Notes under the pieces: generated by a model | Told to the model about the DNA's origin: nothing | The model's database searches: none | The model's input: only the letters and a program-made list of their open reading frames with translations | Shown here: positions 1,982-24,569 of the stretch, piece after piece | Layout: each line of letters begins with the position of its first letter | Numbering within the stretch: position 1 is the stretch's first letter | From: Dictyostelium discoideum | Taxonomy: Eukaryota | Reading direction: 5' to 3' | Assembly: GCA_000004695.1 (NCBI GenBank) | Contig: CM000151.3 | Span: forward strand, 3,520,001 to 3,584,000 | Length of the DNA: 64,000 nucleotides | Position numbers and translations under genes: made by a program

Positions 1982-4331
1982 GTTAAACATATTTATATTA
2001 ATCAAAAATAATTATCTTTTTTTATTTTATTTTTTGATCAATAGACCAGATTATATAATTATTCTAACAGTATTCAAAAAAAATAAAAAAAAAAAACATG
2101 ATACACCCATAAAAACTAATGTCATAAATTTTTTTTTTTTTTTTTTTAAGGTGAATTATAATATTTATTTTTTCCATAAATTTTTTATTTACAGCAATAA
2201 ATAATTAAAATTAATTTTCGTTTTTTCATTTTTTTTCATTTTCCATTTTATTTTTTTTTTTAATTCCCAAACACTTTTTTTAATTTTTTCAATTTTTTTT
2301 TTTTTAATTCTCTTAACCAAATATCTATATATTTTAAATTTTTTTTTTAAATTCAAATAAATAAATAAATTAAAATGTTTTCAAAAGGAATCAATATAAT
2401 GGGTCACTCTTAAAATAAAAAAAATAAAACAATAATGATAAAAAAAAAATAAAAATATTAGTGTAATAGGAAATTTATGGACTCAGAAAAACAATATATT
2501 TATTTTTGAAATTGTACCCTCTACAAAGAAAAAAAAAAAAATAATCACACAGAAATAAAATAATTATTTTTTTAATTTATTTTTTTCTTTTTTTTTTTCA
2601 AAACTAATTTTTATATGAAATAAAAAAATAAAAGTAAAAAAAAATAAAAAAAAAGGCAACGAACATACACCAGCACCTCATAAAATTACTTTTCACCACT
2701 GAAATTTTTACATCCCTTACTAATTTTTAATTTCATTTTTTTATTTATTTTTTTCTTTTTTTTTTTTTTTCTTTTTTTTTTTTACTTTTTTTTTTGGTTA
2801 ATAAAAAAATAAATAAATAAATAAACAAATAAAAAAATAAATAAATTTTTTGAGTTAATCTATAAAGCAGGTTTAGCAAATGGAGTTTGGTTTTTAATAT
2901 TTTTAGGGGTATCATTGTTGGTAATTTAGGTACAGCGGCAATAATTGATATAGCAGGTTTAGCAAATGAAGTTTTATTTTTAGGTGATCATTATCGATAT
3001 TGGGATTTGCAACATTGGGTAAACCAGCAAAAGTTAATGGTAAAGGACAAATAGCAGAGAATCAAACTAAGTATTAATATGAACCATCATCAGGAGATAG
3101 GAACAAGATGATACAACAACAACAACAACAACAGGTAAAAGAAAAACTAAAGATACAGACAATAGTTCAAATAAAAAAAGAGTGTAAGTTTTATATTTAA
3201 AGATAGACCAATTCGATTACTGGTGACCATTACTTTATAGTGGTATAAGTCAATCATTCTTTTTTTGGTGTATTCCCTCAATTACTTAGTAAAGAATGGA
3301 TTGGTAAAGCTGTGGCTTTTTTTACGATGCTTCTGTTAGTAATTTCGGAGCTTCACCTGGTAAAGGTAAACAAGCTGCAAAGAATTAGAAAAGATTAAAT
3401 ATTTAGAAATGACATGACGTTAAGCTATTAAAGTTACAAAAATGTAAATAATCATAATAAATTAATAAATCAATAAATCAATAAATTAAAAAATAAATTA
3501 ATTAATAAATAAATAAATAAATAAATAATTAAATAATTTTTAAAAAGTACTCTAATTTTGGAATTATTTGTTTTTTTCTTTTTCTTTTTTTGCTCTAAAA
3601 CTTTTTTTTTTCTTATTTTCATATACACTACTTTTATTTTATTTATTAATTTTGTGCAAATAAAATTAACATAAGAAAATACTCGACACACGAGAAATTT
3701 ATTTTATATTATAATTTTTAATATTATGATTATTTTCATTCTTGAAACTTCTTTAAGTGCTTCACGACAAGCCATATCTGAACATTTAACCATCAAATCA
3801 TTCTATGCAGTTTGATTACCTTCATCAAGTGAAGCACCTAAATAACCACTTCAATAAAAACTATTTTATGTATGTTTTGGACACTTAAGAAAAACTACAG
3901 AGTTTATTTTTCAATTTATCACTATACTGCTCAAATTAACTTAATAAATGACTATATTTTTTAGAAAAAAAAAGTAAAAAATAAAGAAATTCATGACTTA
4001 ATAAAGTAAACAGTGAATCAAAAATGTAAACCGAAGTTATTTGAGGCCATGGTGGATCAGTTGAGACGGCTAATGTGTTTATACCTGAACATGTACATGT
4101 AGTATTGTTCTTCTGTTTATAGAGTTTGGAGTTGGTGATTATATGTACACATTATTATTAAAGAATGAAATTCTTGATTTATACCAATCACTAGATAATT
4201 CAGCATTAACACCAAATATAATACAAGGTCATAGAAAATATTTTGAATAATTGATTTTAAAAGCAAAAAAATTATAAGCATCACATGATAAATTATAAAC
4301 ATTACATGATAAATTTTAAACATATGCACAG

Positions 4332-4786
4332 TTTTTTTTTTTTTTTTTTTTGAATTGGATAACGCAATTATTATTTGCTTCTCCTTGAGATGCTAGATCT
4401 CATTTTATTTTATTTTTTTTTTTTTTTACAGGGTCTCTAAAAGAGGGGTTGGTTTACTTTTTTTTTTTTTTTTTTTTTTTGTTTCGAATTTTGAATTGTA
4501 TTATTACTTTTGATTAAAACATCTTTTTTGTCCAAACTTTTTTCTAAATCTTTTTTTATTTTATCGTCTGGTTCGTGATTGATGTTTATGACGTATTTGA
4601 ATTGTTTTTTTTTTAATTGAGTTTTATCCACAATTTCGCTTATTTTTTGTAGGCATTTGTGTTGCTTAATATTTGTGGTGTTGTTTGTGATTTTCATTTT
4701 ATTTTCTTTCTATTTTTTTTATTTTTCTTTAAAAAGTTAAAAATCTGGAAATTTTCTGATTAACTTGGGTTCCAGGTTTTTTTTTT
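4332..4786 (-). mobile_element. 5'-truncated TRE5-like non-LTR retrotransposon 3' end (C-module-like), flanked by an 18-bp target-site duplication. Itself interrupted by a roughly 115-bp insert (4376..4489).
   Basis: Poly(T) 4332-4350 is the element poly(A) on the minus strand. 4352-4375 and 4490-4560 are the reverse complement of 14366-14447 (the tail of the element next to tRNA-Glu). ttttaaacatatgcacag occurs at 4314-4331 and 4787-4804. The block ends 48 bp upstream of tRNA-Leu. Confidence 0.6.
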
Positions 4787-4787
4787 T

Positions 4788-4844
4788 TAAACATATGCAC
4801 AGGAGTTTGGTGAAAAAATTTTAAACATATGCACGGGAGATTGG
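4788..4844. repeat. Direct repeat taaacatatgcac(a/g)ggag(t/a)ttgg at 4788-4810 and 4822-4844. The second copy overlaps the first 10 nt of tRNA-Leu.
   Basis: Seen directly. A third partial copy at 4314-4331 borders the retroelement poly(T). Confidence 0.8.
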
Positions 4845-4913
4845 TCGAGTGGTTAAGACAATAGATTTAGGCTCTATCCTCCGGGGTCGCGGGTTCGAAC
4901 CCCGCATCTCTCA
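4835..4913 (+). tRNA. tRNA-Leu, anticodon TAG (UAG), class II with a long variable arm.
   Basis: GGGAGAT acceptor pairs with ATCTCTC (one G-U). D-stem GTC/GAC. Anticodon stem ATAGA/TCTAT. Loop TTTAGGC. T-arm GCGGG-TTCGAAC-CCCGC. Discriminator A. Confidence 0.85.
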
Positions 4914-5454
4914 CATTCTTTTTATCCATTTAAATATCTAGATTTCCCTGAAATTTACCTAATAAGGTTAAATAAAATTAAAAAAAGAATGAGGTCAACC
5001 ACATTAAATTGGTAGGAATTTATTTGAGTTTTTACTATTTACGAATAACATTTATTTATTTGATCTATAATTTCATTTTTTTATATATTAACATTATATT
5101 ATTAAGGTTTTTAAAATTTTATTTATTTTTTTTTTTTTTTTATTTTTTTTTTTTTTTTTGAAACTCACACATAATATTGCATGCAGAAATACAAATTTAA
5201 AAAAAATCCGAATTAACACCTATTATTACTAAAATATCTACATCTAGATCAAGTAAATAATTAATTAATATCAAATAAATAATAATAATAAAAATCATAC
5301 ACATTATATGTGCTCATTTTTGAGTAGCTAATCTAAAGAATCTGGTTAAACTTTATATTGTGTGATACTACTGTATGTTAGTATTAGTTGTGCATGTCCT
5401 TGCATCCACTTTACACTGAATGAATAGTAATCAATGTGGTTGGGTCAACTGACA

Positions 5455-6532: not shown

Positions 6533-8833
<2,301 letters not shown>

Positions 8834-8916
8834 TATAATATTTGTGAGTGAGTGTGTTGTGTTGTGTAAATATATAATACCAGTTTTTGGTTTTTTTTTT
8901 TTTTTTTGGTATAAAA

Positions 8917-8966
<50 letters not shown>

Positions 8967-9157
8967 TAAGGATTCTAGTAATTAATTTGGTTCAAAAAAA
9001 AAAAAAAAAAAAAAATAAAAAAAAAATAAAAAAAATTTTAATAAAAAAACAGTTAAAACCATCTTTGAAAAAGGCTAAAAATTTCAAAAAAAAAAAAAAT
9101 ATTCCATGATATGAGATTTACTTTTTTTTTTTTTGATAAAGAAGATATTTATTTTTT

Positions 9158-11040: not shown

Positions 11041-11219
11041 CCAAAATTTAATTAAATTTTTAAAGTTTAATTGTTTTGAAATTTCACAACGTTATCAATT
11101 AGAAATAATACTTTTATGGGAATTGGATTTTTTATTATTTTTAAAATTTTGAAAACTAATTATTTTTATTATTATTATTACTTTTTTTTTTATTTATTTA
11201 TTTTTTAATTATTATTTAT

Positions 11220-12408: not shown

Positions 12409-12959
12409 AGTTGTTGTTGATAATTAACTAATTTTTCAATACCTTTATTTGCTAAATTAAAATCAAAACAAACTTTAATACCATCTTTTTTATTTTTATA
12501 ATAAAATAATTCATCTGTATGATCAAAATGTAATTTTAATGTTTTTACATTTTCTTTTTTTATAATTGAAAATTTTCCAATTCTTTCAATAAAATCTTTT
12601 GATTCTGATGTTTTTATTTTTGTTGTCATTATTTCGGTGGTAGTATTATTATTATTATTATTATTATTAAAATTTTTTTCAAAATCTAAATTATAATTAA
12701 AATCAATTGAAACTGTTAAATTATTTGATAATGTTTTAAACCAATCATGATTCACTAATGCCAATGAAATCATTAATTCTTTAATTAACTTTTCATTATC
12801 TCTATAATCAATATCTTCAATTTTAATGAAATCAATTAATTTATTATTTCTATCAATATGTTTACATAATATTTTAATTATATATTTTTGAATATATAAT
12901 GGTAATTTTATAATTTTATTATTATTATTACTATTATTGTTAATATTGTCGGTTATCAT
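11220..12959 (-). CDS. Hypothetical protein, 579 aa. Paralog of 6533..8833 with shorter N/Q tracts and a (KE)n acidic-basic repeat.
   Basis: MITDNINNN...KLPLYIQKYIIKILCKHIDRNNKLID... C-terminal domain shared with the upstream paralog. Confidence 0.75.
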
Positions 12960-12988
12960 TTTGTGGTCATTTAAAAAATTGTTAATTT

Positions 12989-13027
<39 letters not shown>

Positions 13028-13420
13028 AATTCTTATTATTCTCAATGTCATAAAAACATTTTCATCGCCATATCGCAACATTTTTTAATAATATCTCCCA
13101 AACCATTTTTTTTTTTTTTTTTTTTTTTTCAAAACAATGGTTTATGAAAATTCCACAATTTGAATTTGTTTTGTTGAAAAATGAATATTTAAATTATTAA
13201 TCTTTAAAATTAAATCAAATTGTTAAATTTATAGATAAATATATATAAATCAAATTGAAGTTTAGTAACTTGCGAAAAACCTTACAAAATGTTGAATTTA
13301 TAAGTTATGCAATATAAATATATAAATAAAATATATGTTAAGAAAGAGATAATAATTACAACAAATAAAGAGTTTATTATTGTTATGAAAATTGTAAAAA
13401 CGAAAAACTGTTTATTTTTA

Positions 13421-13550
13421 TTTTTATATTTTCGGTTTTAACTTTTTTTTTTTACCTAAAAGCGGTGTATATTTTCGGTTTTAACCGTTTTTTTTTTTTT
13501 ACCTAAAAGCGGTGTATTTCGGTTTTAACCGAACTTCGTAAAAATATCAA
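13421..13550. repeat. 2-3 tandem copies of a roughly 45-bp unit (acctaaaagcggtgtat(at)tttcggttttaacc-Tn), in the 3' flank of tRNA-Glu.
   Basis: Seen directly. Each unit carries cggttttaaccg, a degenerate B-box-like GGTT...ACC motif. Confidence 0.6.
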
Positions 13551-13565
13551 TTTTAGTAAAAAAAA

Positions 13566-13637
13566 CTCCCCATTCGGGAATCGAACCCGAGGTACCAGTG
13601 TGAAAGACTAGAGTGTTACCGACTACACCAATGAGGA
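13566..13637 (-). tRNA. tRNA-Glu, anticodon TTC (UUC).
   Basis: Reverse complement TCCTCATTGGTGTAGTCGGTAACACTCTAGTCTTTCACACTGGTACCTCGGGTTCGATTCCCGAATGGGGAG. Acceptor TCCTCAT/ATGGGGA. Anticodon stem CTAGT/ACTGG. Loop CTTTCAC. T-loop TTCGATT. Confidence 0.85.
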
Positions 13638-13683
13638 ATTATATGGAAATATTTGATTAAACAAGAAAATTTAATTATTTTAT

Positions 13684-14457
13684 TTATATGAACACCATCC
13701 AAAATTAACTCCTGGCCAAAAAGAAATAATGATCAAAATGAATAGCAAACACCTTCCATTTAAAGAAATTAAAAAAATAATAAACATGGAAGGTAGAGAC
13801 CTATTATGGAGATACACACAGAAAGCACTACCAAAAATATACAACATGCCATGCCAACAGTATGGGGAAGATGAGACTTCAGAACATATATTCTTCAACT
13901 GCAAAGCCCACATCAAAAACACACAAGAAATCTTCAACTACACATTAACCAAGTGTGGACACACCTGGAATGTTAAGATTTTAAACCATCTACAAATTGC
14001 ACTAATATCCAATTTAATAGCTATTATATTCGAAAAAATTTGGCACAAAAGAAACAAACTCATCCACGATGAAATAGAAATAGTAATTCATAGACAACAA
14101 GTCATACGTGAACTAATTAAAACACAAAGAGTTGCATGGGATAGGACACAAGCGGTTATAAACAAAACATTAAGAATCAAATCAAAGCAATGGCCAGAAG
14201 AACAAAATAAATTAGACTCATTAATCTCTAAAGTTATTACAATTTAACAGACAATGGAACTCACCTCTTCACGCAATAGCACTTCCCAAACATCTCAAAA
14301 AATACAATAATTCACTCAGTACTCTCTATAAATGAAAAAAAAAAAAAAAAAAAAAAAATATAAAAAAAGATTTAGAAAAAAATTTGGACAAAAAAGATGT
14401 TTTAATCAAAAGTAATAATACATTCAAAATTGCGTTATCCAATTCAAAAAAAAAATA
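13684..14457 (+). mobile_element. 5'-truncated TRE5-like non-LTR retrotransposon: ORF2 C-terminal portion (13729..14247, Cys/His-rich tail HIFFNCKAHIKNTQEIFNYTLTKCGH), A-rich tract, then C-module-like tail and oligo(A).
   Basis: The element's 5' junction is about 46 bp upstream of tRNA-Glu on the opposite strand. The tail 14366-14447 is repeated inverted at 4352-4560. Candidate TSD ttaattattt at 13672-13681 and 14458-14468. Confidence 0.6.
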
Positions 14458-14820
14458 ATTATTTAATTTAATATTCAAAAGAAATAATTATTAAATTTCA
14501 ACAATTTACAAATATTAATCAAATCTCTTCTTTCAAAATCACTAAATTAATAATTTACAGTTTGATATTTATTCAAACTCTGTATTCATAAAAACTCAAT
14601 TATCAATTTACATATTACAAAAACCGATTAACATAATTATAAAAATCTAAAATTAATATCTAAATAATATTACAAAAATTTCAGTACAAAATTAAATTTT
14701 ATTTAAAATTCTATTAAAATAAATTAAAAATTGTATAAATAAATAAATAAATAAATAAAACTAAAAATTAAATTAAACTAAATAAATACCATATAAATAA
14801 ATAAATTAAAATTAGTTATA

Positions 14821-15040
14821 TTCACTGCAGCTTTACATTTTGTATTCAATAGCTATTGGCATAATTAGGAGATGTGATAAAGTCAGAATTAGATAAGGTC
14901 ATTCTATAGAAAAAGGATCGAATATTCCCTTTTGATATAATGGTCATCTCTGTAGATTATAACCAAAGTAGGCTATTACATTTGGCGACATTGCTTGTTA
15001 GAATCAACAACCAGCCCAAGTAAAAAAAAAAAAAAAAATA
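14821..15040 (+). mobile_element. GC-richer roughly 200-bp block ending in A16, possibly the 3' end of another retroelement. Identity unknown.
   Basis: Composition island followed by a poly(A) tract 15025-15040. No ORF. Confidence 0.25.
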
Positions 15041-15484
15041 TAAACAAAGTTTAATAAAAAAAAAAATATAAACAAAATTTAATTATTAAATTACATTGTT
15101 AATATTAATAAGTTTTTAATAAAATTAATAGTAATTGTAACAAGATCTCAAAAAAATATCTTGTTAATACTAATATTTATTTAATTTTATGAAATGTTCT
15201 AAACAGAACATTTAAAAAATAACTATTAATATTGAATTGATAATTCAATATTAATTATTACTAACTTAATTCATTTTAATAAATTGTTTCATTTTATATA
15301 ATAAACTCACTAAACACAACTAAACAATAATTCAAAAATAAATAATAATAATTTAGAATATAGTTTTGTTTCAACATTTTGTTATGACACATACAATTCA
15401 GAAAATAATAATAATTTATTTTATTGTTTTGTTTAAAGGGGTTTTCTCCCGTTGTAATTTAATTTTAAAATTAAATTTAATTTT

Positions 15485-15526
<42 letters not shown>

Positions 15527-15639
15527 AAATTAATTTGAATTTCACAAAAGTTTTCATAACAGATATTAGATACCAGATATTAAAAATGCCACACACAAAA
15601 TCACCATATAAAATAATAATTAAATTAAAATAATATAAT

Positions 15640-18600
15640 ATTGTAGTTTAAATTGGATCTAACCCTATCGGCCGAGGTTGGAGTAGTTAATAGATTTGAG
15701 TTCGCTCAAATCTAAGGACTATAAAAGGAAACTAGGTTTCCAATTCAACCTCAGTAGTAAATATATACAAACAATAAAAACACGATAGGGCTACGGTCAT
15801 TAATTAATTTTGTGTACATTTATTTCTTAAATAATTAATCATTTTACTTTAATAATAGAATAAATAAATAATTAAATTTTATTAAATAATTTATTTTAAG
15901 AGAATGTCAACTAATAATAACGAAGATATTGATAATGATGAATTGCAACAACAGGATAATGAGGAACAACAGCAACAACCACAGGTATCAACATTCAATG
16001 AACAGCAACGTCAGATAAGGGAACAGCAGCAGGTAATAGATAAACAAAATCAACTTCTTCAACAACACATTCAATTAATAAATCAACAATCTCAACAACA
16101 ATTGAATAATCATACGACACCACCATCATCACCCAACATTACAACACCAATAACTTCAGCAGCAATAACCAACACAATAAAGAAATCATTAGGAAAAATT
16201 AACACTGATGATACCGACCACCAGTTGTTACAGTAATGATTACAATTAAACAATAATAATTAAAATAATAATTTATTTAGTTTTATATAATTTAGAGTTT
16301 TCATTCGAAACTTCTCGGTCGAAAATTGTAAAAACTAAAAAAAAATAAAGTTAGTTCTGATTGACCTTTACAGCATTCTTATAATATTAATTGTTTTCCT
16401 TTGTTTACTAAGACAAAAACATTAAAGCATAACCCAAACACACTCAAACTCAAACACATATCAACAATTGATGGTAGAGCTATTTTAGCAGACGTTATAT
16501 TTCCAAATCAATTACCAATTGGTATTCTTGGAATTTATGCACCAGCATCAAATGATACCATCAAAAAGAATTCATAACAACTTCACTACAAACACTTCTC
16601 CACAACCACTCAACAAACCCAATACCAAACCAATCCCAACATGTATCTATTATCGCAGGCGATTTCAACTGTATCCACAACGACAATTCACTATTAGACG
16701 ATATTATCCAATCCTACACATACCAACACCATCTAATTGATCAAGGTGAATTTAAAAACACTCCAACTCATACACATGGCAACAGATTAGATAGAATATA
16801 TACTCATTACAATAGAATAGACCCTGAAAATTTATACACAAGTCCACCAAATTCCATCTTCATTATCAGATCATAATCCAGTATCAACAACAATTTCTTC
16901 ACCTTTTCAAATAAATAAACATAAGAAAAGATGGATATTATCACCTGGTACTGCAAATGACCATGAAGCAATCAATATTATCAATCATTTAATAACTAAT
17001 CACAATAACACATCAATCAATCAATTTACAAATTGGTCAAAAGTAAAATCAAAAATTATTAAAACTCTAAAAAACTATCAATATAACAAAGACAAACAAA
17101 CTCAACGTGCAAAACAAATACTATTAGAAAAAGCAGCAAAATTTAAACATCTTGAAAAACAATGCATCGCTGAATACAATATTATATGTAACAAAAACAA
17201 ATTACATCAAAACCACACAAACAAATAAAGGAGAAATACCTATAAGTATCTATCAGCAATACTAAACAAAGATCAAAAGATGCAAAAATTACCTTCTGAG
17301 AATACTTCCCTTCATCGTCAACATCAACCAAACTGGTTTCGTACCCTACAGATTTATCATAGACAACATCATCAACATCAATGAATTAATCAACTACCTC
17401 AAATCTAAAAACCTCCCTGGTAACATCACACTATTTGACTTCTTTAAAGCATTTGATTCTCACGATAGTATTAAAAGAACATTAATTCATATTGGTATAC
17501 CAATAAAATTAATAAATATAATCCACAAGCTTTTATCTGACTCACAAGCAAAAATTTCAATTAATGGTAAAACGACTAGAAAATTCGATATTAAAAGTTG
17601 TGTAAAACAAGGTGACCCAATCTCAGCCACTTTATTTGTAATTGTAATTGAAATATTAGCAAGAACAATAAATGCAGACAATACAATAATTGGATTACCA
17701 ATTTCACCCAATCCACAAATTAAAATCAAATTTACCCAATTTGCAGAAGACTCTACAACATACAACATCAACTACGAACAACAACAACAATCAATCAAAC
17801 ATTTCGATAATTTCTGCGCTTCAACATCATCATCATTAAATTTTGACAAAAGTGCAATAATAGAAATCAACCCCCACAAAATCACTGATAAACACTTAAT
17901 AAACAACATTCCACAATCAAAAAGAATACCAATAACCAAAAAAGATCAATCAGAAAGAGTTCTTGGCTATTTCTTTAATCATAATGGTTTACATAGGAAA
18001 TTACCAGAAACAATGAAAACACTGATCAAATCATTAGTACTATGGAAAACTAGTGGCACAACATTAAAAACAAAAACAACCATCATAAACACTTACTCAC
18101 TATCACCAATAACATATTTATCATACCTTGAAGAATTTACAAAAGATGAAGAAATTCAAATTAATAAATTAATCTCATGGTTTATGAATTCTCCCGCAAA
18201 TTCTGAATCACCAACTCTCAATACCAATTCCATTGAAAACAACACATCAACCATCCATTCACGTGCAAAAATACCTTTGATGTGTTATGATAGATCATTA
18301 AAACTATTAAAAGAAGGTGGTTGGGGTATGTGGAATATACAATTACGACAAGCTGCTCAAAAGATTTGGATATACAACATATTTTTACAAATGCATAAAT
18401 CTGCAAACAATTCAATATACATGATAAGTTGGATGGATCAAATCATCAACAAGTCAATCTCTTCTCCATTCCTTATAAAAATCAAAAAAGAATGGGAAAA
18501 CTATGCAACTCAAATTAGATATCTAAAAGATAAAATTCAAACCCTACAACCAATATTAATAAAAAACCAAACCACTCAAACATTAACCACAAATAATATT

Positions 18601-19647
18601 TCACTACCACCAACACTCAAAGAAATCTACTCGACAATACTCAACAATCACCAATGTAAATCAAAAGACTATATAGGAAAGAAATATTCAGATCTACTTC
18701 TTACTTCGCACCAACAATCAATATAACTATTATGGAAATACACATACGACCAACTATTTGTCAAAATTCAAAAATTAAAAGATCCAAAAGGCCGTGATAC
18801 AATGCAAAGATTCCATGCTAGATGTCTTCCGATTAATCATCTACACAACAAAGTTTGCTCCATTTGCAACAATGAAATGAATAATGATCCCTATGGTCAT
18901 TTGTTTTTCAATTGTCAGCACACAATCAACTTCATAAACCACGACAAATTAAAATATTTTATATATAAAAATTGCAATGGAAACAAAAACTGGTCACTAA
19001 CAAAAAACCAAACAACAAAATTATACACACTCATTTATAAACCACAAACAAACAACAAAGCATTTAAACCAGATCCAACTATCAATATTAATTTTCATTT
19101 TGCAGAAAACGCACAATATAAAAAATACAGGTTCAACTGGAATTATATAAACACAAATCTTGATCTAGTCAGAACACATGCATATTGGAACATAATCTCA
19201 TTAGTTATTCACCAAATATGGATATGGTTATGCAAATCATTATTTGACATCAATATAACTCAATCAATTGACAATTGGAACAACCAAATAAACAACACAA
19301 CACTAGATTATGATATATTAAAATCAAAATGGCACAAGCTAATAAGATTGGAATATTCCAGAACATTATCAAACTTTAACCAATACTCAATTAAAAACAA
19401 CCTCACAAAAACTCAAAAAGAAACCCAATGGCCCGAAACCATCAAAAAATTTAAAAAAGAATGGAGCATAAACACAAACCAATGCTGAAACCAATTCCAA
19501 CAATTACACCACCAATTAATTATTAATTACCTAATCTAAAATAACATACCATTTTAAATTCACAAAAACTAAAAAACCTAAAATAAATAAATAAAGTACT
19601 AATTGTATACTACAATAGTTTATTTATATCAAAAAAAAAAAAAAAAA
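15640..19647 (+). mobile_element. Degenerate TRE3-like non-LTR retrotransposon. It has a Q-rich ORF1-like ORF (15904..16236), an ORF2 with APE-type endonuclease (about 16440-16960, several stops), reverse transcriptase (about 17340-18000, FDFFKAFDS...CVKQGDPISATLFVIVIE), a Cys/His tail (about 18800-19490), a 3' module and A17.
   Basis: RT and EN motifs readable but interrupted by frameshifts and stops. Its poly(A) end lies about 50 bp from the 3' end of tRNA-Phe, i.e. downstream of the tRNA. The terminal region differs from the TRE5-like tails. Confidence 0.65.
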
Positions 19648-19654
19648 TTAAAGC

Positions 19655-19690
19655 AGAGATCGAACTTGCGATCAAAGGATTTTTGTGTGT
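19655..19690 (-). promoter_or_regulatory. External B-box (exB) downstream of tRNA-Phe: AGTTCGATCTC on the tRNA strand.
   Basis: Matches the pol III B-box consensus GGTTCGANTCC, about 25 bp 3' of the tRNA. Confidence 0.5.
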
Positions 19691-19697
19691 AAAAATT

Positions 19698-19771
19698 TGC
19701 CTCAGGCCGGGATCGAACCAGCGACCTTAAGATCTTCAGTCTCACGCTCGTACCAACTGAGCTACTAAGGC
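19698..19771 (-). tRNA. tRNA-Phe, anticodon GAA.
   Basis: Reverse complement GCCTTAGTAGCTCAGTTGGTACGAGCGTGAGACTGAAGATCTTAAGGTCGCTGGTTCGATCCCGGCCTGAGGCA, very close to canonical eukaryotic tRNA-Phe. Confidence 0.9.
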
Positions 19772-20441
19772 TTGGTGAAAATGTAAATTTTATTAGCAGT
19801 TACAATATTAAGAAAAATTCAAAAAAAAAAAATTATAATTTTTTTTTTCTATTTGTTCAGGATTACAATAACAAATTAATTTTAAATAAAAAATTTACTT
19901 TTATTCGAACAAAAATCAAATGAAATTTCAAAACTCAATATAAATAAAAAAAAATGGTTTTTGTTATTCCTTCGAATAAAATATAATAAAGATAAATATT
20001 CAGCGCACATTATTTAAATTATATTAAAATTTAAATATATATTAAAATAATAGTAATCCTTAGTATCACTAATCAAATATATATTTAGATATAATTTAAT
20101 TGTTTAATTAAATTTTATATTTAATTAAAAAAAAAAAGGAAAGGAAAGGAAAGGAAAGTATTTAAAGAATTCGGGACAATTCAACTATAAAAAGAAGCCA
20201 ACCTTCTAATTTACCAAGAAAAATCATAAAGAGGTTGGGTACGTAGCCAAATTTATATGTTATTTCTTTAAGTTTATTTAAAAAAAAAAAAAAAAAAAGT
20301 AATAAATGGCTTTAAAATTTATTTATTATTAGTATTACTATTATCTTTTTTTAATGAAACTTAAATAAATATGAAAACATATTATACAAATAATTGTTTA
20401 TTATTATTATTATTTTTTTTTTTTTTTTTTTTTTTTTTTTC

Positions 20442-24569
<4,128 letters not shown>

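Follow-up and report, generated by a model that had tools for sequence, protein, structure and literature searches.

In Dictyostelium discoideum, tRNA genes are the habitual landing sites of the TRE5 and TRE3 families of non-LTR (non-long terminal repeat) retrotransposons, with ~61% of the tRNA genes bearing at least one such element and 13% bearing both kinds (PMC5006619). TRE5 elements insert 44-54 bp upstream of a tRNA gene and in the opposite orientation, TRE5-A (also called DRE) doing so 47 ± 3 bp upstream for 59% of its genomic copies, and TRE3 elements are found 40-150 bp downstream, oriented like the gene (PMC5911963). The published layout of TRE5-A.1 is AB-ORF1/ORF2-BC, where ORF stands for open reading frame and where the B-module measures ~290 bp and the C-module 134-137 bp (PMC3159450); according to the literature, TRE5-B and TRE5-C lack the 3' B-module. 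It is further known that the ORF1 protein of TRE5-A contacts TFIIIB, itself positioned by TFIIIC on the B box of the tRNA gene, and that integration proceeds by target-primed reverse transcription, whose usual traces are a truncated 5' end, a duplicated target site and an oligo(A) tail. Here we describe a locus in a 64,000-nucleotide (nt) stretch of D. discoideum DNA (assembly GCA_000004695.1, contig CM000151.3, positions 3,520,001 to 3,584,000, G+C ~20%; hereafter the window, whose own numbering is used throughout), at which a tRNA-Glu(UUC) gene has very probably been struck on both sides by tRNA gene-targeted non-LTR retrotransposons, a TRE5-A copy upstream and TRE3-type tails downstream.

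What was observed at this gene and at several other loci are sequence identities, element architecture, target-site duplications, spacing and orientation; L001-L010 denote the D. discoideum loci fetched for this purpose, and P0001-P0014 the annotated proteins or gene models that were compared. ARAGORN reports three tRNA genes in the window, Leu(UAG) at 4835-4914 (+), Glu(UUC) at 13565-13638 (-) and Phe(GAA) at 19698-19771 (-), and since Rfam likewise places a tRNA-Glu at the locus, this part of the original prediction was borne out by both programs. The gene looks intact, with an A box, a B box and a T8 run directly 3' of it, the latter taken to be the terminator on the strength of established RNA polymerase III biology (Table 1). 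An Rfam scan of positions 12500-20500 (E ≤ 1) returned both tRNAs only and no further RNA family in the flanks. The sequence itself is reproduced in a second assembly (GCA_054883475.1, contig JBTAPE010000001.1), to which positions 13300-14600 are 100% identical; over 6.7 kb of that assembly (L001) there were no mismatches and two gaps, of which the one inspected (window ~13016) is a difference in the length of a T-run. The two sequences would thus probably represent different assembly versions or nearly identical strains.

The upstream element occupies positions 13690-14455 (+), is 5'-truncated, lies opposite to the tRNA gene in orientation and keeps ~770 bp of the 5.7-kb TRE5-A element. Its ORF2 fragment matches only short Dictyostelium retroelement proteins (annotated as 'hypothetical' or 'RT zinc-binding', with E-values down to 1.6e-88), at protein identities of 100% to the local model P0002, 92% to P0003, the TRE5-A-type representative, and 80% to P0001, and its DNA is ~92-94% identical to copies in the same genome that have the ORF2-B-C architecture. 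In the reference copy (L003 8285-9260), the ORF2 stop is followed by a long A-run, a 297-bp segment containing the ORF1 start (MKITNNTTNI...), another A-run, a 136-bp C-module segment ending ...gagatctagcatctc...gcgttatccaattc, and oligo(A). Across the same-genome TRE5-A reference copies the B-module measures 296-297 bp and the C-module 129-136 bp, which matches the published 3' end. Single positions agree as well: among the features mutated in PMC3159450 are the C-module bases C38, A35, C26 and T15 (counted from the 3' end) and ORF1 residue 10 (I10*), and we found Ile at residue 10. All four bases are at their published positions both in L003 and in a second TRE5-A copy of the window, near tRNA-Leu, the corresponding segment being deleted in the tRNA-Glu copy. 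Each of the four lies in a stem predicted within the last 54 nt (-11.3 kcal/mol, z = -3.1, 0 of 200 shuffles as good), in keeping with stems I and III of the published hairpin.

On these grounds, and jointly with the TRE3-type reading of the downstream units set out below, we assign the upstream element to TRE5-A with high confidence, the choice of TRE5-A over TRE5-B or TRE5-C being made indirectly, through same-genome copies of the published architecture. An origin from TRE5-C, TRE5-B or some other family such as DGLT-A might be suggested by the short tail, from which most of the B- and C-module sequence is gone and which superficially resembles families without a 3' B-module, and by Pfam recognizing no domain in the fragment. 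Yet a 73-bp B-module remnant is present, and the protein is 92% identical to the copies carrying both modules against 49% to the P0007-like family. The latter (L004 8562-9086) fits TRE5-C: it has no B-module and a diverged C-module of its own, 76% identical to that of TRE5-A, compared with a published 78%. LTR elements do not end in an oligo(A) tail, and DGLT-A or any other LTR element was rejected because of the oligo(A) end and the non-LTR similarity of ORF2; DGLT-A is described in the literature as an LTR element. Membership in any of these other families is thus highly improbable, and a closer similarity to a non-TRE element, which the original prediction had named as the result that would speak against it, did not emerge.

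The relic resembles TRE5-A in its ORF2 C-terminus with a CCHC knuckle, the A-run after the ORF2 stop, its B- and C-module sequence and its oligo(A) end, as well as in its 5' truncation and in its placement ~47-50 nt upstream of the tRNA gene, in opposite orientation and with a ~15-bp duplication; it differs from the full element in what it has lost. The original prediction had described an ORF2 C-terminal Cys/His domain at 13729-14247, and while its ORF2 nature stands, the motif turns out to be damaged and the reading frame to have run on to 14335. An open frame covers 13687-14247 (+), but tblastn picks up ORF2 similarity again in another frame at 14225-14329, past the stop at 14247, and DNA alignment to TRE5-A copies shows that 9 bp are missing near 13960 and 2 bp, with a shift of the frame, near 14227. 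Homologues also extend beyond 14247, and the ancestral ORF2 therefore ran to the TGA given in Table 1. Where intact copies read CQQCGEDETSEHIFFNC, a CCHC knuckle, CQQC has become CQQY in the tRNA-Glu copy (Cys to Tyr, near 13861), so that the zinc knuckle is broken; this call rests on the CCHC motif read in the alignments, as Pfam gives no domain in the ORF2 fragment, P0003 or P0007. The element was also thought to be an ORF2/C-module fragment 46 bp upstream of the gene. The element itself was confirmed, but the distance comes to 49 nt when the proximal duplication is counted in, with TRE5-A sequence beginning after 52 nt, and the tail, which continues past the A-run at 14335-14358 to the element's end at 14455, is mostly B-module, with only 14 nt of C-module.

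Two internal deletions have shortened this tail, one of ~220 bp in the B-module and one of ~125 bp in the C-module, with junctions (A-run/tataaaaaaagattt and caaaatt/gcgttatcc) in A-rich and AATT microhomologies. Both most likely post-date integration, since the C-module deletion removes the hairpin that is essential for retrotransposition (Siol et al.). That the doubly deleted tail should instead mark a distinct, still mobile non-autonomous TRE5-A subfamily has a precedent in TRE5-A.2, a known mobile deletion derivative of TRE5-A. It is nonetheless very hard to credit, as TRE5-A can no longer retrotranspose when the C-module stems are mutated and these are among the parts lost, neither junction recurs in the other TRE5-A 3' ends examined (window tRNA-Leu, two in L003, L008 and L010), and both fall within short homologies, as is typical of slippage. 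As a further point of agreement with the published description of TRE5-A, L003 also carries a TRE5-A.2-like copy with the ORF2 deletion and the deletion at the B/C junction.

Of the coding capacity of TRE5-A, only the C-terminal ~215 codons of ORF2 remain, and ORF1, the A-module promoter, the endonuclease and the reverse transcriptase are all missing from the tRNA-Glu copy, which for this reason is probably an inert relic. The missing domains and the mutated knuckle speak against activity and not against ancestry, because they are what is expected of a 5'-truncated relic. A public gene model has nevertheless been drawn on it: ACTFIT_002844 (P0002), a 161-amino acid 'hypothetical protein' at 13786-14330, is built on this dead ORF2 remnant, whose 2-bp frameshift it spans with an 'intron' that probably reflects an annotation error. 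Chimeric models of a similar kind, drawn over TRE fragments, are P0013 and P0014.

The same geometry recurs at other tRNA genes. TRE5-A lies 46 nt upstream of tRNA-Leu(UAG) in the window, compared with the 49 nt at tRNA-Glu(UUC), and TRE5 spacings in the fetched loci are 45 nt at Arg(UCU) (L002), 49 nt at Thr(AGU) (L003), 48 nt at Leu(CAA) (L004), 47 nt at Leu(AAG) (L008), 47 nt at a first Ser(GCU) locus (L010) and 44 nt at a second Ser(GCU) locus (L010), where the element is TRE5-C-like. In all eight cases the element is opposite to the tRNA gene in orientation with its 5' end toward it, and clear target-site duplications are present in seven, the two copies at the second Ser(GCU) locus having eight exact shared bases and one difference over 14 nt. 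The tRNA-Glu copy therefore agrees with the published TRE5-A integration rule in its 49-nt spacing, its placement on the opposite strand and its 15-bp duplication, which contains one mismatch; and the spacing, whose failure to recur elsewhere had been named as a further ground for doubt, was reproduced within 44-49 nt at the seven other sites.

The companion at tRNA-Leu is a shorter remnant, which starts in the A-run that follows ORF2 and whose 5' end lies at that same 46-nt distance from the gene. Positions 14357-14458 of the tRNA-Glu relic match 4562-4463 there in inverted orientation (88% over 103 bp), as had been noticed from the start, and the B-module part of the relic tail is 88-89% identical to window 4463-4562 (inverted) and to L008 10812-10911; the match at tRNA-Leu arises because both TRE5-A remnants share B-module and C-module sequence. 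Upstream of tRNA-Leu(UAG), within window 4311-4834, the motif aaattttaaacatatgcac occurs three times, two occurrences being the duplication of the remnant that contains B and C only and the third abutting the 5' end of the tRNA; given this third copy, a direct repeat would already have been present in the upstream region before insertion.

On the other side of the tRNA-Glu gene, the 3' flank contains what appears to be a tandem repeat. Tandem Repeats Finder (TRF) places it at 13426-13531 with a period of 47, 2.4 copies and 89% matches (score 161). The repeat, noted in the original prediction as a 45-bp unit, is real, but it is probably not a slippage repeat. Within it, CGGTTTTAACCG occurs twice and nowhere else in the 64 kb (expected 0.05). 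Read in the sense of the tRNA, the flank consists of the T8 run, 26 nt, cggttaaaaccgaaat, acaccgcttttaggt + A13, cggttaaaaccgaaaatat, acaccgcttttaggt + A11, gttaaaaccgaaaatat and then unrelated sequence. The most fitting reading is one of target-site duplications piled up around two tails of TRE3 type: with cuts staggered 2 nt apart, so that the target copies are CGGTTAAAACCGAAA and GTTAAAACCGAAAATAT, two insertions yield every base of the flank with no indels, and they also explain why unit 1 is 3 nt 'short' and why copy 3 has no CG. A tiny TRE5-A remnant in L004 has the same form (gggacaaccacatg, ccaattc + A22, gggacaaccacatg).

The 15-16 nt insert of each unit, TACACCGCTTTTAGGT, is a retroelement 3' end; folding of the tail RNA gave no significant structure (z about -0.5). 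In L008, CACCGCTTTTAGGTAAAA is found three times (twice exactly, once with one mismatch), where, followed by oligo(A), it terminates retroelement copies on the minus strand that measure ~75 nt, ~113 nt (12824-12952) and 15 nt. The 15-nt copy (A15) is flanked by its own direct repeat, aggagaagcaac, and we interpret aggagaagcaac and aattgcgttatc around the longer copies as similar duplications. All of these copies are embedded in a TRE5-A C-module and follow tRNA-Val(AAC) at ~60-120 nt, in the orientation of that gene. The position and orientation described for TRE3 are thus found both behind tRNA-Val and in the tRNA-Glu flank, where the first tail starts 51 nt past the end of the gene on the same strand, and so are an oligo(A) tail and a target-site duplication (A13 and A11 tails at tRNA-Glu; A15 with aggagaagcaac in L008). 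The likeness to TRE3 (TRE3-A to TRE3-D) accordingly consists of mini-insertions at least 50 nt 3' of a tRNA gene, in its orientation, with oligo(A) and target copies of 15-19 bp, and of the same tail in TRE3 geometry at a second gene; the difference is that at tRNA-Glu the element part amounts to only 15-16 nt. The earlier suggestion of a former TRE3 landing pad was in this way supported more literally than it was meant, the units being target copies around two TRE3-type tails.

The other suggestion made for the repeat, that of degenerate external B boxes, fared poorly. It would derive the 47-bp units from a degenerate external B box that was duplicated in tandem by slippage or by unequal exchange, with cggttaaaaccg possibly providing extra TFIIIC sites. 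External B boxes, which match GTTCRANYC about 35-41 nt behind the gene, are reported at 66-80% of D. discoideum tRNA genes, four of the six other tRNA genes examined have them (GTTCGAT..) at +31 to +36, and the B-box-like nonamer GTTAAAACC lies at just such a place, 36 nt past the tRNA end. Its one mismatch, though, hits the consensus-invariant C of GTTC, and one-mismatch matches to GTTCRANYC occur in the window at chance density (100 observed against 97.6 expected). Nor does duplication explain the repeat well, since the partial third copy stops sharply and exactly at the end of a target copy, the non-target part of the unit is a retroelement 3' end with oligo(A), which at another locus has duplications of its own, and slippage needs extra indels for the differences between the units. 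We consider this origin improbable; a decayed external B box may at most lie inside the target, and it is not needed to explain a repetition for which target-site duplication suffices.

These features would fit the following history, of which we infer the order and timing of events at tRNA-Glu, the later decay and the inert state of the relics. Target-primed reverse transcription would have placed a TRE5-A copy at the canonical site, ~47-50 nt 5' of the tRNA-Glu gene and in the opposite orientation, with ~15 bp of target duplicated and the element cut short at its 5' end within ORF2. This copy would later have decayed through the frameshift, the 9-bp deletion, the Cys-to-Tyr change and the ~220-bp and ~125-bp deletions between short homologies. 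Downstream, two separate abortive TRE3-type insertions, each keeping the last 15-16 nt and oligo(A), may have struck nearly the same site with staggered cuts 2 nt apart, giving the order target, tail, target, tail, target.

Several observations weigh against this account of the locus. In such AT-rich DNA, 15 nt with at most one mismatch is reached in 2.2% of AT-matched control window pairs, which tempers the value of the upstream duplication. The TRE3-type tail was found at one other locus only (L008) in ~170 kb of Dictyostelium DNA examined, L006, L007, L009 and L010 yielding no further copies, and all tail copies seen are at most 113 nt long and free of ORFs, which is why they are called TRE3-type here and not TRE3-A, B, C or D. 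One of the downstream units could, moreover, stem from unequal crossing-over between target copies and not from a second insertion. Finally, no empty orthologous site was retrieved against which to check the insertion boundaries: the 579-amino acid neighbour gene, used as a homolog query, returned paralogues only (~30% identity), its C-terminal part free of low complexity gave no matches in a homolog search, and an exact-protein look-up for the orthologous site matched the same assembly only.

The locus is an ordinary one, with a known element at a known site, and tRNA-targeted TRE5 and TRE3 insertions are already well described; beyond annotation, where a public gene model turns out to be built on a dead retrotransposon fragment, it matters little. 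Only two points are mildly new: what passes for a 'tandem repeat' is read differently here, and an identical 15-16 nt truncation recurs. The first means that a 'tandem repeat' behind a tRNA gene can be stacked duplications around tiny retroelement tails, and such stacks are a record of one tRNA gene having been targeted position-specifically more than once. As to the second, three apparently independent insertions (two at tRNA-Glu and one in L008) stop at the same base, which raises the tentative and rather doubtful idea that the 15-16 nt tail with oligo(A) is a discrete, recurrent retrotransposition product and not a random 5' truncation. The longer tail copies in L008 (~75 and 113 nt) do not stop at that base. 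If true, the idea would suggest that the TRE3 reverse transcriptase lets go or switches template early at a defined point, or that a minimal unit serves to recognize the 3' end of this element, and the recurring truncation is in this sense a small lead on how the TRE3 reverse transcriptase handles its 3' end.

Table 1. Features of the tRNA-Glu(UUC) locus and of related retroelement remnants in the window.
Feature	Position	Strand	Evidence or remark
tRNA-Glu(UUC) gene	13566-13637	-	Rfam tRNA RF00005, 56.3 bits, E = 2.3e-10
A box of tRNA-Glu, TGGTGTAGTCG	13620-13630	-	fits TRRYNNARYNG motif (PMC5391098)
Internal B box of tRNA-Glu, GTTCGATTC	13578-13586	-	exact B-box match
T8 run directly 3' of tRNA-Glu	13558-13565	-	read as RNA polymerase III terminator; sequence reading
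Putative target-site copy 1, cggttaaaaccgaaa(t)	13516-13531	-	starts 35 nt past tRNA 3' end; includes B-box-like GTTAAAACC
Putative TRE3-type mini-insertion 2, (T)ACACCGCTTTTAGGT + A13	13488-13515	-	tRNA orientation; exact 19-mer only here in window
Putative target-site copy 2, cggttaaaaccgaaaatat	13469-13487	-	
Putative TRE3-type mini-insertion 1, ACACCGCTTTTAGGT + A11	13443-13468	-	
Putative target-site copy 3, gttaaaaccgaaaatat	13426-13442	-	similarity ends sharply after it
Proximal target-site duplication, taattattTtattta (also written taattattTattta)	13672-13686	+	sequence comparison
Junction bases tat between proximal duplication and element	13687-13689	+	
TRE5-A ORF2 C-terminal remnant, ~215 codons	13690-14335	+	TGA stop at 14333-14335
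A24 run after ORF2 stop	14335-14358	+	joined by ~220-bp deletion to B-module end; compared with L003 8773-8813 and L008 10540-10597
Last ~73 bp of TRE5-A 3' B-module	14359-14431	+	duplicates ORF1 codons (..IKKDLEKNLDKKDVLIKSNN..); reference structure L003 8814-9110
Last 14 nt of C-module, gcgttatccaattc	14432-14445	+	hairpin part deleted
Oligo(A) tail, A10	14446-14455	+	
Distal target-site duplication, taattattAattta	14456-14470	+	
TRE5-A remnant at tRNA-Leu: A-run, B-module 296 bp, C-module 129 bp, A20 only	4332-4788	-	starts in post-ORF2 A-run
Perfect target-site duplication of tRNA-Leu remnant, aaacatatgcacag	4318-4331 and 4790-4803		
Degenerate element, endonuclease part	16365-17225	+	
Degenerate element, reverse transcriptase part	17266-18723	+	
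Degenerate element, CCHC part	18727-19485	+	

Other retroelement traces surround the locus. A degenerate non-LTR retroelement with many frameshifts occupies window 15640-19647 (+), and its A17 tail ends 50 nt 3' of tRNA-Phe, 9 nt past the external B box GTTCGATCT (19657-19665) of that gene. Being opposite to tRNA-Phe in orientation, it falls outside the published TRE3 rule, and relative to tRNA-Glu it has the orientation of a TRE5. Its protein similarity is 38% over 73 amino acids to the TRE3-type ORF2 end in L008 and 34% over 47 amino acids to TRE5-A (P0003). Between this element and the relic, positions 14471-15640 are AT-rich and contain an A17 run (15022-15038) after a G+C-richer block (14820-15021), and an A39 run (15487-15525); these A-runs may be further decayed retro-tails in a tandem of TREs. 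A search of this interval for copies of the tRNA-Glu upstream target gave one candidate (15074-15093), not significant in AT-rich DNA, and BLAST of the interval against all fetched loci returned nothing useful. Near tRNA-Phe, an A12 run at 19822-19833, preceded by ..aaaaattc and showing no clear target-site duplication, lies ~50 nt upstream of the gene and could be another minimal TRE5-A stub.

Very short remnants were also seen in the fetched loci. L008 contains, at 12964-13014 and 11106-11152, 19 nt + A13 of a second TRE3-type tail (TGAAGGTCTGATCACAGGT) and the 15-nt copy of the first tail, the 19-nt remnant having what reads as a target-site duplication of its own. In L004, a remnant at 8172-8229 comprises 7 nt of C-module and A22 within a clear target-site duplication of its own; over the wider region 8138-9100, the 14-bp target gggacaaccacatg has two exact occurrences and a shorter third one of 11 bp, gggacaaccac. 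These target copies surround the C-module stub and a TRE5-A ORF2 fragment whose A-run passes straight into a TRE5-C-like fragment, an arrangement that suggests repeated strikes at one site and possibly a chimeric or template-switched copy.

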